In this document: one piece after another, positions 35,296 through 38,240 of the stretch | How positions within the stretch are numbered: the first letter of the stretch is position 1 | How the letters are laid out: each line of letters opens with the position of its first letter | Made by a program: the position numbers and the translations under genes | The notes under the pieces: model-generated | Seen by the model: only the letters and a program-made list of their open reading frames with translations | What the model was told of the DNA's origin: nothing | Database searches by the model: none | Source of the DNA: Thermoguttaceae bacterium | GTDB lineage: Bacteria; Planctomycetota; Planctomycetia; Pirellulales; Thermoguttaceae | Reading direction: 5' to 3' | Length of the DNA stretch: 55,475 bases | NCBI GenBank assembly: GCA_049509395.1 | Contig: JBEKZY010000040.1 | Span: 1 to 55,475 of the forward strand

Positions 35296-35300
35296 CAAAT

Positions 35301-35347
35301 ATTGCAAATTGTAAATTGCAAAATGCAAATTGCAAATTGAATAAAAG
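35301..35347. repeat. (ATTGCAA)n heptad array R1, 6 nt after the atpA stop
   Basis: ATTGCAAATTGTAAATTGCAAAATGCAAATTGCAAATTGA differs at one position from the 40-nt array after atpG (37714-37753). Confidence 0.9.
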
Positions 35348-35352
35348 ATAAA

Positions 35353-35721
35353 ATGGGATCACATCGCAGTAAACATTCGACTTGCAAAATCGCGGGAATA
35401 AAATTGCCTTCTAAATGGCCGCCTATTCCTGACAATATTGGCAAATTGCGACAAATAAAAACAATCGACGGACGTATACAGCATATTAAAATTGAAGGTG
35501 AAATAATTCGACCACAAAATAATTGTGATAATAAAATTATTGTTCTTCAAAAAATAAGGTTTGTGGAAGAGGAAAGGATTGAATTCCGATTTGCATATTA
35601 CATGATCGGCGTGAAACCGCGGGCACGAGGGAAATGGATTTGGGGTCAGTTTTGCCTTATGATTCCAAAAGATGATTTGAAAGTATTACTGCGTGAAGCC
35701 AAAAAAAGAAAATGGTTTTGA
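35353..35721 (+). CDS. AT-rich orphan hypothetical protein inserted in the atp operon
   Basis: 122-aa ORF on the same strand as the atp genes. Composition is clearly more AT-rich than its neighbours. No recognisable domain (..EFRFAYYMIGVKPRARGKWIWGQF..). Confidence 0.45.
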   Translation: MGSHRSKHSTCKIAGIKLPSKWPPIPDNIGKLRQIKTIDGRIQHIKIEGEIIRPQNNCDNKIIVLQKIRFVEEERIEFRFAYYMIGVKPRARGKWIWGQFCLMIPKDDLKVLLREAKKRKWF

Positions 35722-35751
35722 AAGAAAATACAAGCCCTGAAAGGGTTTGAA

Positions 35752-35953
35752 TTCGCCCAGCCCAGGGCAACGCCCTGGGTGAGGTGGGCCGCAACGCAAT
35801 TATTTGTTTTGTTATTGCGTGATCGGTCCAACGGACCAACAATTCGTTGTTGGACGGATCGAACGGTTGGCCCGTTGGGCCGACAATGAACATAACGTAA
35901 CCCACGAACCCAGGGCGTTGCCCTGGGCTGGGAGAACATAGGGCCTTCGGCCC
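35752..35953. repeat. REP-like nested-hairpin block, copy 1 (upstream of RAYT)
   Basis: It starts TTCGCCCAGCCCAGGGCAACGCCCTGGGTGAGG and ends CCCAGGGCGTTGCCCTGGGCTGGGAGAAC..GGGCCTTCGGCCC. It is nearly identical to 36565-36768 in the same orientation. Confidence 0.85.
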
Positions 35954-35989
35954 GTGAATAGATAATTGAGCTTTGCTCCGGAGAACAAT

Positions 35990-36445
35990 ATGCCGCAATC
36001 TTTGGCTCGCATCTGGTTGCACATCGTGTTCAGCACCAAAGAGCGGCGGGCGTATCTCCAGAATACGGAAATTCGCGACGAGATGTTCCGCATGTTGGGA
36101 CATCACGCCAAGGAAGCAGGTTGTCCCCCGGTCCGCGTAGGAGGTTGGATCGACCATGTGCATGTATTGTGTGGATTGGCCCGCACAATAACAGTCGCTG
36201 AGTTAGTTGAAATTATGAAACGTGAAACGTCGAAGTGGATCAAGCAGCGAGCAACCGATTTGAGCACATTTCATTGGCAAAACGGATATGGAGCATTTTC
36301 GGTGAGCCAGTCGAATGTCAATCAAGTAATAGAATACATTGATCATCAACCGAATCACCACGGACGCATGACGTTTCAAGAAGAGTTTCGCGCCTTATGC
36401 GCAAAGCATAATATACAAATAGATGAACAGTACGCATGGGAATAG
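35990..36445 (+). CDS. IS200-like Y1 (HUH) transposase, REP-associated tyrosine transposase (RAYT) type
   Basis: IWLHIVFSTKERR, HUH motif DHVHVL, FHWQNGYGAFSVS catalytic Tyr region and YIDHQPNHH. It is flanked by REP-like blocks. Confidence 0.85.
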   Translation: MPQSLARIWLHIVFSTKERRAYLQNTEIRDEMFRMLGHHAKEAGCPPVRVGGWIDHVHVLCGLARTITVAELVEIMKRETSKWIKQRATDLSTFHWQNGYGAFSVSQSNVNQVIEYIDHQPNHHGRMTFQEEFRALCAKHNIQIDEQYAWE

Positions 36446-36564
36446 GTAGATACATGATTTCCGAAAGAAAACAAGACTTATGCCCCCGAAGGGGCACGGG
36501 TTCGTTCAGAATAATATTTTTACAACGACGTGGTTTATGTGTTTTTGCCCCGAAGGGGCACCGG

Positions 36565-36768
36565 TTCGCCCAGCCCAGGGCAACGCCCTGGGTGAGGTGG
36601 GCCGCAACGTAATTATTTGTTTTGTTTGTGCGTGTTCGGTCCAACGGACCAACAATTCGTTATTGGACGGATCGAACGGTTGGCCCGTTGAGCCGACAAT
36701 GGATGTTATGGCGTTCCCGAGCCCCAGGGCGTTGCCCTGGGCTGGGAGAACAAGGGGCCTTCGGCCCG
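36565..36768. repeat. REP-like nested-hairpin block, copy 2 (downstream of RAYT)
   Basis: Direct repeat of 35752-35953 with scattered substitutions. It is preceded by two TGCCCC-gaa-GGGGCA C(G/C)GGTTCG hairpins at 36481-36503 and 36546-36568. Confidence 0.85.
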
Positions 36769-36826
36769 AAACTGAAAACCGTAAACCTTAAATCGTAAAC
36801 TGAAAACCGACAACTGATAATTATCC

Positions 36827-37708
36827 ATGGCCAAAGCCAAGACTTTTGATAAACGCCGCAAGTCGATTAAAAACATCCGCAAAATTACGCGGACCATGGA
36901 GTTGATCTCCACTGCGCGGTTCAAGCGGGCCATGGATCGGGCTATCGCCGCATCGGCCTATACCAAGCGGATCACAAAATTGGTGGGAAACCTGGTCCGC
37001 AGCGGCGCCGAAATATCGCACCCGCTCCTGGCGGCCCGTGGGGAAACAAAACACGTGATCTTGCTGGTCTTGACGGCTAATCGCGGGCTCTGCGCCGGGT
37101 ACAACTCCAGCGTGCTGCGCCAGGCCAACGCGCGACTGAAAGAATTAAAACAGCAGGCGCCGCAAGTGCGGTTGGAGGTCTCGGGCAAGCGCGGCGTCTC
37201 GTATTTTCGCTTCCGCGGCATCAAGCCGGACCAGCGCTTCACGCATTTCGAGGACAAGCCCGCTTTCCACGAGGTCGATGTGCTTGCGCGGCGGTATTTG
37301 GAGGATTTTCAGGCGGGATTGCTGGACCGGCTGGACGTGGCCTACACCAAATTCGAGAGTTCCAGCCGCCAATTCGCAGCGATCGAAATGCTTTTGCCTA
37401 TCGCCCAATTGGAAGCATCGGCCGAGGAAGAGACTGGTTTGGCCAAAACGCAGTATGAATTTTTGCCTTCGGCCGAAATCATTTTGGACGAGCTCGTGCC
37501 CGCCAGTTTCAAGGCCAAATTGTTTAAATGTTTTCTCGACGCCGCGGTAAGCGAGCAGATCGCCCGCATGACGGCCATGAAAGCCGCCACCGAAAACGCA
37601 GACTCGATGATCGCGAATTTGTCGATGGCATACAACCGGGCCCGGCAAGGTCAGATCACAGGCGAACTGCTGGAAATCATCGGCGGGGCGGAGGCGCTGG
37701 AGAAATAA
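36827..37708 (+). CDS. atpG: F0F1 ATP synthase subunit gamma
   Basis: IKNIRKITRTMELISTARFKRA N-terminus and C-terminal ARMTAMKAATENA..ITGELLEIIGGAEAL. Confidence 0.95.
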   Translation: MAKAKTFDKRRKSIKNIRKITRTMELISTARFKRAMDRAIAASAYTKRITKLVGNLVRSGAEISHPLLAARGETKHVILLVLTANRGLCAGYNSSVLRQANARLKELKQQAPQVRLEVSGKRGVSYFRFRGIKPDQRFTHFEDKPAFHEVDVLARRYLEDFQAGLLDRLDVAYTKFESSSRQFAAIEMLLPIAQLEASAEEETGLAKTQYEFLPSAEIILDELVPASFKAKLFKCFLDAAVSEQIARMTAMKAATENADSMIANLSMAYNRARQGQITGELLEIIGGAEALEK

Positions 37709-37713
37709 CGGGG

Positions 37714-37760
37714 ATTGCAAATTGAAAATTGCAAAATGCAAATTGCAAATTGAACAAAAG
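37714..37760. repeat. (ATTGCAA)n heptad array R2, 6 nt after the atpG stop
   Basis: ATTGCAAATTGAAAATTGCAAAATGCAAATTGCAAATTGA. It is the inverted partner of R3 at 38190-38229. Confidence 0.9.
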
Positions 37761-37792
37761 GCATTGATACATATATTTTTCTGGATTGATAG

Positions 37793-38158
37793 ATGACACC
37801 GGATGAACTTTCAGAAAGATTACTGGATTTTGCCGTTCGAATCGGAAAAGTGGTCGATGCACTGCCGGACACGCGGCTGGGACGGCATATCGCCGGGCAA
37901 CTCGAAAGATGTGGAACTTCGGCTCCGCCGAATTATGAAGAAGGTAGAGCAGCCGCAAGCCGGGCCGATTTCATCCATAAGTTGAATATTTGCCTTAAAG
38001 AACTTCGAGAATCAAGATTTTGGCTTCGGTTTATTATAAAAGCGAATTTGTTGCCAAAGCATAAGATGACTGACCTACTCGACGAGTGCGAACAACTCAT
38101 GAAAGTCATAGGCCAATCGATTGTCACCGCAAAAAGTAAAATAACAAAAAAACGATAA
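37793..38158 (+). CDS. four-helix-bundle protein (23S rRNA intervening-sequence protein family)
   Basis: AGQLERCGTSAPPNYEEGRAAASRADFIHKLNICLKELRESRFWL matches the QL.R..tS...N..EG......DF..kl.i..kE..E...Wl signature of this family. Confidence 0.85.
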   Translation: MTPDELSERLLDFAVRIGKVVDALPDTRLGRHIAGQLERCGTSAPPNYEEGRAAASRADFIHKLNICLKELRESRFWLRFIIKANLLPKHKMTDLLDECEQLMKVIGQSIVTAKSKITKKR

Positions 38159-38189
38159 ACTTTTAATAAACCTTCACCCCCGGAATTGT

Positions 38190-38229
38190 TCAATTTGCAA
38201 TTTGCAATTTGCAATTTCCAATTTGCAAT
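38190..38229. repeat. (ATTGCAA)n heptad array R3, inverted orientation, 11 nt before the atpD start
   Basis: The reverse complement ATTGCAAATTGGAAATTGCAAATTGCAAATTGCAAATTGA differs from R2 at two positions. Confidence 0.9.
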
Positions 38230-38240
38230 AAAAAAACAAT

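Follow-up and report, generated by a model that had tools for sequence, protein, structure and literature searches.

We analysed a stretch of 55,475 nucleotides (hereafter the window; contig JBEKZY010000040.1 of assembly GCA_049509395.1) from an uncultured peat-soil planctomycete of the Thermoguttaceae. The window carries an F1Fo ATP synthase operon on the plus strand, in the order atpI-like-B-E-F-H-A-G-D-C according to the open reading frame (ORF) listing and to Pfam and NCBIfam scans. Our subject is what lies in two of its junctions: a four-helix-bundle (4HB) gene bracketed by inverted heptanucleotide arrays between atpG and atpD, and a small gene, orf122, together with a RAYT-like transposase gene between atpA and atpG. 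A first-pass annotation, made from the letters of the window, had described these junctions as normally short and here expanded to 1531 bp and 532 bp by three insertions. Those sizes are exact: the atpA-atpG gap (gap 1) spans 35296-36826 and the atpG-atpD gap (gap 2) 37709-38240. The genes it named are likewise all present and co-oriented with the atp genes in the ORF listing and the Pfam and NCBIfam scans. For comparison the atpG protein was searched in one genome per species, which gave 80 Pirellulales atp loci with gaps taken from the tblastn table; there the first gap is mostly 13-190 bp and the second mostly 26-170 bp. Both expanded junctions are real and unusual. The nearest genomes are uncultured Thermoguttaceae and Pirellulales metagenome-assembled genomes (MAGs) from the SPRUCE peat experiment and Microflora Danica. 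The features of the two junctions and of the genes at their edges are as follows; IVS stands for intervening sequence, REP for repetitive extragenic palindrome, and arrays were called with TRF.

33754-35295, plus strand: atpA, F1 alpha subunit, upstream edge of gap 1 (Pfam ATP-synt_ab 6.7e-77, N- and C-terminal domains; 89-98% identical in close relatives)
35300-35347, plus strand: heptad array A1, (TTGCAAA)n, 5.6 copies, starting 4 nt past the atpA stop codon
35353-35721, plus strand: orf122, a small AT-rich gene of 122 aa (GC ~0.35-0.36, against ~0.6 in the atp genes)
35734-35954, no strand assigned: REPIN-like block L, ~220 bp, a direct repeat of block R with internal inverted repeats
35990-36445, plus strand: gene for a RAYT-like Y1 (HUH) transposase of 151 aa (Pfam Y1_Tnp 1.6e-21; NCBIfam transpos_IS200)
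36484-36509, no strand assigned: solo terminal small hairpin of the REPIN block (GCCCCCGAAGGGGC...), direct-repeat family D4
36547-36768, no strand assigned: REPIN-like block R, ~220 bp, 91-96% identical to block L
36769-36817, plus strand: heptad array (AAACYGN)n, a leader directly upstream of the atpG start codon
36827-37708, plus strand: atpG, F1 gamma subunit (Pfam ATP-synt 8.1e-85)
37714-38229, plus strand: the whole IVS-type cassette (arm, ORF, arm), 516 bp
37714-37757, plus strand: its 5' arm A2, heptad array (ATTGNAA)n, inverted repeat I2, starting 5 nt past the atpG stop codon
37793-38158, plus strand: 4HB gene of PF05635/TIGR02436, the '23S rRNA IVS protein' or S23p family (Pfam 3.6e-17; TIGR02436 6.5e-24)
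38186-38229, plus strand: its 3' arm A3, inverted heptad array (TTNCAAT)n, ending 11 nt before the atpD start codon
38241-39707, plus strand: atpD, F1 beta subunit, downstream edge of gap 2 (Pfam ATP-synt_ab 1.6e-69)

The element that carries our argument is the cassette of gap 2. Its protein matches PDB 2RLD at 1.4e-14 and has 3618 homologues. The two arms, A2 and A3, are 44 nt each and 95% complementary, with 5.6 copies of a 7-nt unit per arm (TRF). The RNA fold predicted for 37700-38245 is a stem of ~44 bp with the ORF in its loop (-152.8 kcal/mol, z = -4.6), and the A2/A3 stem appears in the minimum-free-energy and centroid folds alike. Such flanks are peculiar to this gene within the window: when a flanking inverted-repeat score was computed over 44 window genes, the 4HB gene scored 78, the next gene 47 and the median 18. 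Moreover, in the orthologous atpG-atpD cassettes of four relatives (L007, L008, L012 and L013; relatives are named by locus) the arms remain 93-98% complementary via matched changes, with GAAAA/TTTCC in the window against GGTAA/TTACC in L008, and TTGTAAA/TTTACAA in L007. The ratio of nonsynonymous to synonymous substitution (dN/dS) for the 4HB gene is 0.02-0.08 against the relatives, as low as for the atp genes, and the gene is under strong purifying selection. The architecture of the cassette, its conservation and this selection on its ORF are the observations on which the rest is built. The first-pass annotation had named the heptad arrays in passing and missed their role as the key structural feature.

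Does the 4HB gene have a promoter of its own? The annotation had suggested looking for internal promoters at the heptad arrays. The single match there, a sigma-70-like sequence over the inner end of A2 (37750-37777), has a -10 region that is not conserved in L008, and we reject a dedicated promoter because at many loci no more than 4-17 nt separate the arm from the ORF. Other plus-strand promoter-like matches lie inside the AT-rich orf122 and are not clearly above expectation.

The closest described counterpart is the IVS of the 23S rRNA gene. In Coxiella burnetii the IVS is 428-444 nt long and carries a sense S23p ORF between terminal inverted repeats that form a 28-bp stem; the ORF is preceded by a heptamer, GACAGAT, repeated two to three times in tandem, and experiments have placed the RNase III cleavage sites within the stem, where the first of these repeats begins (PMC4990558). 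The atp cassette resembles the rRNA IVSs of Coxiella, Leptospira and Brucella (PMC4990558) in having a PF05635/S23p ORF in sense within the host transcript, a terminal inverted-repeat stem (44 bp, against 28 bp in Coxiella), tandem heptamers in the 5' arm, a similar size (516 nt, against 428-444 nt), a GC content below that of the host and vertical inheritance once acquired. It differs in lying between protein genes, atpG and atpD, rather than in 23S rRNA helix 9, 25 or 45; in an ORF that is under strong purifying selection, whereas that of Coxiella is decaying and probably untranslated; and in that 4HB ORFs are often preceded by a Shine-Dalgarno-like motif. Excision by RNase III, demonstrated for Coxiella, would for the atp cassette be a conjecture by analogy. 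Location apart, the anatomy is that of the Coxiella IVS, and we therefore class the atpG-atpD insert as an IVS-type element residing in an mRNA operon. The annotation had drawn a link to the rRNA IVSs through the protein family; the link goes deeper than that, with heptad repeats, inverted-repeat stem and an ORF in the loop all shared. For a general association of 4HB genes with heptad arms we found only the Coxiella IVS account, and as our coverage was incomplete an earlier description is possible.

How general is this arrangement beyond the atp operon? Searching metagenomes with the 4HB protein yielded 28 loci at 35-100% identity, and arms were sought by aligning the 250 nt upstream of each ORF to the reverse complement of the 250 nt downstream, with shuffled controls. 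Inverted heptad arms of 20-51 nt, scoring well above the shuffles, lie near the ORF in 22 of 25 testable metagenomic loci outside atp (57-81% amino-acid identity). The cassettes of the metagenomic set sit among co-oriented genes: between a hexapeptide transferase gene and hisS-aspS, between MoxR and DUF58 genes, between two MacB genes or between two AcrB genes, with further cases between atpD and atpC, after uvrA and after COX1. A tblastn search of PLSDB added 31 plasmids with 4HB homologues at 28-45% identity. Inverted heptad arms are present in 12 of the 13 plasmid homologues that were fetched, from Cyanobacteriota, Chloroflexota, Spirochaetota, Bacteroidota and Bacillota, and their units are entirely different between loci:

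TTCAAAA: Nostoc
GATTTAC: Planktothrix
AAGGATG: Chlorohelix
GAAAGNG: Treponema
TTTTAGA: Gloeocapsa
GATTAGT: Bernardetia
AATTAGG: Monoglobus
CCAGTNA: Euhalothece
ATTCGCA: Nostoc punctiforme
ATTCGTA: Dolichospermum

Metagenomic and plasmid loci together, 34 of 38 are armed, in at least six phyla. Arms match better within a locus (mean score 58.5) than between loci (38.5; permutation p<1e-4), and 15 of the 18 cassettes lying between same-strand genes are co-oriented with their hosts (binomial p ~0.004). Cassette GC lies below that of the flanks yet tracks host GC, which argues for long residence. We conclude that the hairpin-bounded 4HB element sits within ordinary operons in many bacterial phyla, and this unit, a 4HB ORF between a heptad arm and its inverted counterpart, found across phyla, is the most valuable result of the analysis. 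The contexts on plasmids include drmD and pglX, a helicase and an N6-methylase gene, DUF1156 and HEPN genes, hsdS and hsdR, an RND adaptor and its permease, and cas2 and cas1. Distant plasmid cassettes (L126-L128, L130, L132, L134) were seen repeatedly inside defence operons, one of them before cas1. The annotation had supposed a strategy of hitch-hiking in very highly transcribed loci. This is not supported, for cassettes also lie in MoxR-DUF58, MacB, AcrB/RND, hisS, type I restriction-modification, DISARM/BREX-like and cas operons; what they share is a hairpin in a spacer within an operon rather than extreme transcription.

Within the Pirellulales the history of the two junctions can be followed through occupied, decayed and empty sites. 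The layout is identical in several peat metagenome contigs, and the order atpA-[slot gene]-RAYT-atpG-4HB-atpD-atpC recurs in more distant relatives (percentages are identities to the window):

L013: atpG 94%, 4HB 91%; a different slot gene of 83 aa, RAYT truncated to 82 aa
L007: atpG 83% over a partial match, 4HB 89%
L008 and L009: atpG 71%, 4HB 84%; a different slot gene of 139 aa with a weak PD-(D/E)XK match
L012: atpG 70%, 4HB 80%
L033: atpG 68%, 4HB 69%

Occupied sites are those of L008, L012, L013, L015 and L033. Remnants survive in L056 (atpG 92%), reduced to the terminal ~17 4HB codons and the 3' arm, in L040, with a 71-aa C-terminal 4HB fragment, and in L018, where a short collapsed palindrome derives from the outer ends of both arms. 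The annotation had proposed a search for empty sites in related genomes, and such sites exist in L014, L016 and L017 (atpG 89-90%), with gaps of 43-93 bp and ~165 bp. Much of the patchy distribution is due to loss, as the shortened RAYT of L013 and the decayed 4HB genes of L056 and L040 attest. We conclude that both junctions have long served as cargo slots, in which small genes are gained, kept and lost over family-level time.

The cargo is varied. L015, a close relative, carries opposite-strand insertion sequence (IS) elements in both junctions, one of which splits the 5' arm from the 4HB gene; the transposase-like ORFs concerned, of 313 aa and 483 aa (L015 4837-6001 and 6879-8324), were judged to be IS transposases by sequence inspection. 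Their opposite orientation means that co-orientation of cargo at the junctions is not obligatory. L121, another planctomycete MAG, has a DUF4160/DUF2442 pair inserted at the 5' end of atpG (3360-4100), with the heptad leader and the first ~22 atpG codons duplicated; the duplication preserves an intact atpG, and two more small ORFs (161 and 62 aa, no Pfam match) lie between atpG and atpD. Seven Pirellulaceae loci (L035, L036, L038, L046, L051, L062 and L063) have a conserved membrane protein of 116-166 aa in the atpA-atpG gap, with motifs ..AKEALNFQ.. and ..YRYP..IRLIK, which may be a lineage-specific ATP synthase-associated gene.

The insert in gap 1 can be delimited with the help of the empty sites. 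A TTGCAAA-type array follows atpA in the empty-site relatives L014, L017, L018 and L056 and also in L121, and an AAACYGN-type array precedes atpG in the empty-site relatives, immediately after the TTGCAAA array. Because the empty-site spacer thus passes from a TTGCAAA array directly to an AAACTGA array, the insert of gap 1 sits exactly between two native arrays, A1 and the pre-atpG array, which comparison with the relatives marks as native spacer elements. A1 matches A2 at 96% identity over 47 nt and is 93% complementary to A3, and the window holds 18 heptad-array matches against 0.9 expected. Operon spacers in this lineage are built of tandem heptanucleotide arrays, often as hairpins. The (AAACYGN)n arrays stand directly upstream of the start codons of both atpG (36769-36817) and atpC (39825-39869), in the window and at the equivalent places in L014-L017; they may act as unstructured, A/C-rich leaders for translation in a lineage that makes weak use of Shine-Dalgarno motifs.

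Between these arrays, orf122 and the RAYT/REPIN unit form one contiguous insert, not clearly separate events. The annotation had called the 122-aa ORF an orphan; it belongs to a conserved family and has 22 homologues at 48-70% identity, one of them in the same atpA-atpG slot of L121, followed there by the DUF4160/DUF2442 pair, and others beside a DUF2283 gene or near HEPN and GIY-YIG genes. It has no match in Pfam, NCBIfam or PADLOC. Its AlphaFold2 model (pLDDT 84) predicts a five-stranded sheet with a C-terminal helix, for which Foldseek found no match in the PDB at E<=0.001. No defence-system match was returned by PADLOC for orf122, for the RAYT or the 4HB protein, or for either of two alternative slot genes.

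The annotation's IS200-like RAYT with flanking REP-like blocks is borne out by the Y1_Tnp match at 1.6e-21 and by ~220-bp blocks bearing inverted CCCAGGGCAACGCCCTGGG pairs. The gene most likely starts at ATG 35990, as in the relatives and the public gene call, and not at TTG 35966, where the ORF opens. Aligned to the IS608 TnpA (2A6M), the protein keeps the HUH motif (DHVHVL) and the YxxxQ catalytic-tyrosine motif (EYIDHQ); no close relationship to the solved E. coli RAYT is detectable. Block L runs from a small hairpin through a REP palindrome, internal hairpins and an inverted REP palindrome to a second small hairpin. Each block contains the palindrome twice, inverted (in block R at 36574 and 36723), REP matches number 8 against 0 expected, and as single-stranded DNA the blocks are predicted to fold into a long hairpin (block L -76.5 kcal/mol, z = -10.2). 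This is how REPINs are built. Around the RAYT of L008, L012 and L013 the blocks and the exact REP palindrome are retained, and one internal hairpin differs between the relatives by a compensatory change (GGTCC..GGACC against GGCCC..GGGCC); L022 has REPs at the atpA-atpG junction without a RAYT. The RAYT occupies the same locus in L008 and L012 at 72-75% amino-acid identity, and its nonsynonymous divergence (dN 0.15-0.20) compares with 0.21 for atpG. Domesticated RAYTs are inherited vertically at their site, and the conserved position suggests that this one too has descended vertically at the atpA-atpG junction. An active IS200/IS605 element seems less likely: the protein scores 61.2 bits with NCBIfam NF033573 (transpos_IS200), above the cut-off of 55, yet the 55-kb window holds one copy, in an orthologous position across species at 72-75% amino-acid identity. 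Like REPIN-RAYT systems, then, the unit has a Y1/HUH protein with its HUH and catalytic-tyrosine motifs, inverted REP pairs on both sides, the same locus across species and a REP sequence conserved along with the gene; unlike them, it lies within an essential operon and scores above the NCBIfam IS200 equivalog cut-off.

We can now state the reading that we favour, with a confidence only somewhat better than even: the atpG-atpD insert is an IVS-type cassette in an mRNA spacer, gap 1 holds orf122 and an inherited RAYT with its REPINs between native arrays, and both junctions act as cargo slots. How would an operon tolerate such a cassette? The inserts are co-oriented with the atp genes and there is no plus-strand terminator-like site in gap 1 or gap 2, so that read-through from the operon is plausible, and the 4HB cassette would then be transcribed within the atp transcript. 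Its arms would pair into a long double-stranded stem, looping the ORF out, and this stem could be an RNase III substrate, as in the Coxiella IVS. Processing at the stem would leave the atpB-G and atpD-C parts of the transcript functional. The geometry fits such looping-out and processing, since the base of the stem clears the atpG stop codon by 5 nt and stops 11 nt short of the atpD start codon. By analogy RNase III processing is the best-supported mechanism. As to the annotation's picture of insertions colonising the operon, insertion itself is upheld by the empty sites in L014, L016 and L017, but recent arrival is not: the layout is found at 70-71% atpG identity in L008 and L012, the 4HB gene is under purifying selection (dN/dS 0.02-0.08) and the RAYT diverges at about the rate of atpG, which together argue against recent colonisation. 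The annotation had itself named identical gene content in close relatives, coupled with signs of independent and functionally linked promoters, as a finding that would speak against it, and in part this is the case: the same layout is present at 70-71% atpG identity, while some closer relatives are empty or decayed. To judge from these comparisons, the inserts are ancient, selected residents, not recent hitch-hikers on high transcription.

Several observations weigh against the cassette reading just given. Read-through, stem formation and RNase III cleavage are all steps that we infer. Among 97 arm mismatches in 1056 aligned columns, 15 are G.U and 28 are A.C; this lack of a sense-strand G.U excess is uninformative or mildly adverse to selection at the RNA level, and the complementarity of the arms may be kept at the DNA level or by gene conversion between them. 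Synonymous sites of the 4HB gene have diverged (dS) 3-4 times as far as those of its neighbours atpG and atpD, for example against L013 and L015, where dN/dS is nevertheless 0.02-0.05; this fits weak codon bias but may also reflect replacement of the cassette by paralogous copies and not simple vertical descent. In L014, L016 and L017 a hairpin built of another heptad, (CACGAAA)n/(TTTCGTG)n, fills the atpG-atpD spacer and contains no ORF (z = -7.9 for the L014 fold). Such hairpins without an ORF, found in sister genomes at the very junction that carries the cassette here, may mean that the hairpin belongs to the host and is occupied by the ORF; alternatively, they may be relics of cassettes. 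As for gap 1, the other ~54 kb of the window hold no dispersed copies of the RAYT-flanking REP, all four palindromes flanking the RAYT itself, and for this reason its RAYT membership rests on anatomy and synteny.

One alternative, which we regard as unlikely, takes the arms to act at the DNA level, as terminal inverted repeats or hairpin ends of a non-autonomous mobile cassette, with the RNA stem incidental. The absence of a G.U bias and the raised dS both suit it, as do the patchy distribution in close relatives, deletion derivatives located at the arms (L018, L056) and near-identical 4HB proteins (70-80%) in different phyla. So does the public peat contig L004 (which is L093, 1-1897), in which a SpoU methylase gene precedes the cassette; the switch falls precisely on the first base of the 5' arm, position 37714, and from there through the cassette into atpD the contig is 100% identical to the window. 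Either a second identical copy of the cassette exists and the contig contains an assembly crossover, or the arm was the site of a genuine recombination. Against this alternative, the cassette encodes no transposase or recombinase, and no target-site duplication was found at 21 inspected cassette borders. The heptad units are wholly different between loci, so that no sequence-specific enzyme could recognise all of them. Strong co-orientation with the host operon (15 of 18) also speaks against mobility, and the tracking of host GC argues for long residence. Finally, an alignment search of 2.9 million viral contigs returned no 4HB relatives, and phage carriage is thus not supported.

A second alternative, which we hold to be doubtful in like measure, starts from the spacers: the heptad hairpins would be native host spacers and the 4HB gene, orf122, the RAYT and other cargo would merely have landed there, the arms being no part of the 4HB element. 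The model for such spacers is the short tandemly repeated repetitive (STRR) sequences of cyanobacteria, 7-bp tandem repeats that form hairpins between operon genes, for example in the hupS-hupL spacer, with suggested roles in transcript stability or translational coupling (PMC2670836); the planctomycete hairpins would be their counterpart and serve the same ends. ORF-less heptad hairpins are indeed common in the atp spacers of the Thermoguttaceae and of some Pirellulaceae (z = -6.8 in L045, beside the -7.9 of L014), the gap-1 insert lies exactly between two native arrays, and the cargo ranges from the IS elements of L015, the DUF4160/DUF2442 pair of L121 and the weakly PD-(D/E)XK-like gene of L008 to the Pirellulaceae membrane protein and a PIN-like gene in L023 (the last by sequence inspection only, without a family search). 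Against this, arms accompany the 4HB ORF in 34 of 38 loci, including those of Treponema, Monoglobus, Bernardetia and Chlorohelix, and we know of no heptad arrays as a genomic feature in the phyla of these four. Moreover, 4HB relatives at 65-80% identity in unrelated operons, probably of different phyla as judged from neighbouring genes and source names and not from taxonomy, share the AATTGNA arm type, and of the 44 window genes only the 4HB gene has such flanks. The 4HB genes of Nostoc, Anabaena and Planktothrix are flanked by arrays like the STRRs; unlike those, which were described in filamentous cyanobacteria, the arrays here occur in Planctomycetota and other phyla and bracket a specific ORF. 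To our knowledge STRRs have not been linked to any gene.

Three independent, fairly recent selfish insertions exploiting very high atp transcription, as IVSs do in rRNA operons, would explain the empty sites in close relatives, the shared orientation with no terminators between the inserts and the lower GC of the inserted genes, but this is the least probable of the readings, and a poor one, given a layout conserved down to ~70% atpG identity, strong purifying selection, patchiness that is largely loss (RAYT truncation in L013, 4HB decay in L056 and L040), cassettes in many operons that are not highly expressed, and an orf122 and RAYT/REPIN unit that forms one contiguous insert, not clearly separate events.

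Could the 4HB gene instead belong to a diversity-generating retroelement (DGR)? PF05635 is homologous to Avd, the DGR accessory protein, a four-helix bundle that forms pentamers (PMC10053308). Unlike Avd, the 4HB gene here is solitary, with hairpin arms. No reverse transcriptase is found among the Pfam domains of the genes called within 10 kb (template and variable repeats were not searched for), and with none nearby we reject this assignment. The pentamer does, however, enter a broader and tentative idea, which we think will probably not hold: that rRNA IVSs, operon 4HB genes and STRR-type hairpins are one element family, a heptad hairpin able to carry a 4HB ORF, of which the ORF-less forms would be decayed or non-autonomous, and that the pentameric 4HB protein would act on the arms, with about one repeat per subunit, to process, protect or propagate them.

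The remaining genes of the operon are as follows.

30391-30711, plus strand: atpI-like gene
between the atpI-like gene and atpB, plus strand: membrane ORF of 138 aa
31160-31960, plus strand: atpB
32004-32321, plus strand: atpE
32431-33126, plus strand: atpF
33213-33809, plus strand: atpH
from 39870, plus strand: atpC

That the atp genes might be a degenerate second copy, a possibility raised by the annotation, can be ruled out: they are full length, with dN/dS of 0.05-0.15 and all Pfam domains found, apart from a premature stop in atpC. The stop, TAA at 40191-40193 where L001 and L013 have GAA, is seen in this window only and shortens atpC to 107 aa from 136 aa, with loss of the C-terminal part of epsilon. 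Near the 3' end of atpC (40150-40300) there are five substitutions within ~60 nt relative to the otherwise identical contig L001. An Rfam scan of 35200-38300 (E<=1) gave two chance snoRNA-like matches on the REPIN blocks and nothing else, and no rRNA.

Elsewhere in the window, REP-like palindromes of another family, GCACCGGTTCnnGAACCGGTGC, which has no relation to the REP around the RAYT, lie at 8653-8674, 8814-8835, 10877-10898 and 21177-21198 (4 copies against 0.01 expected by chance), and three of these flank a TPR-repeat gene (8909-10870). Long tandem repeats of 15/30 nt and 27 nt occupy 50900-51110 and 51709-51792, with units like TGGGACAAGGCGGCA in ~10 copies; they are G-rich and, judging by composition alone, might code for a Gly-rich repetitive protein segment.

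What do these findings mean for the family and for its hosts? PF05635/TIGR02436 has thousands of members, often many per genome, and is a puzzle shared with the rRNA IVSs and the STRRs. That a 4HB gene nearly always comes with inverted heptad arms, whatever the phylum or operon, links the rRNA IVS, the solitary 4HB gene and the STRR-like arrays, and linking these three puzzles makes the function experimentally approachable. For the planctomycetes studied here, the operon spacers of the Pirellulales, built of heptad arrays, act as cargo slots, and thus an essential operon can hold passenger genes over family-level time, apparently through structural insulation.

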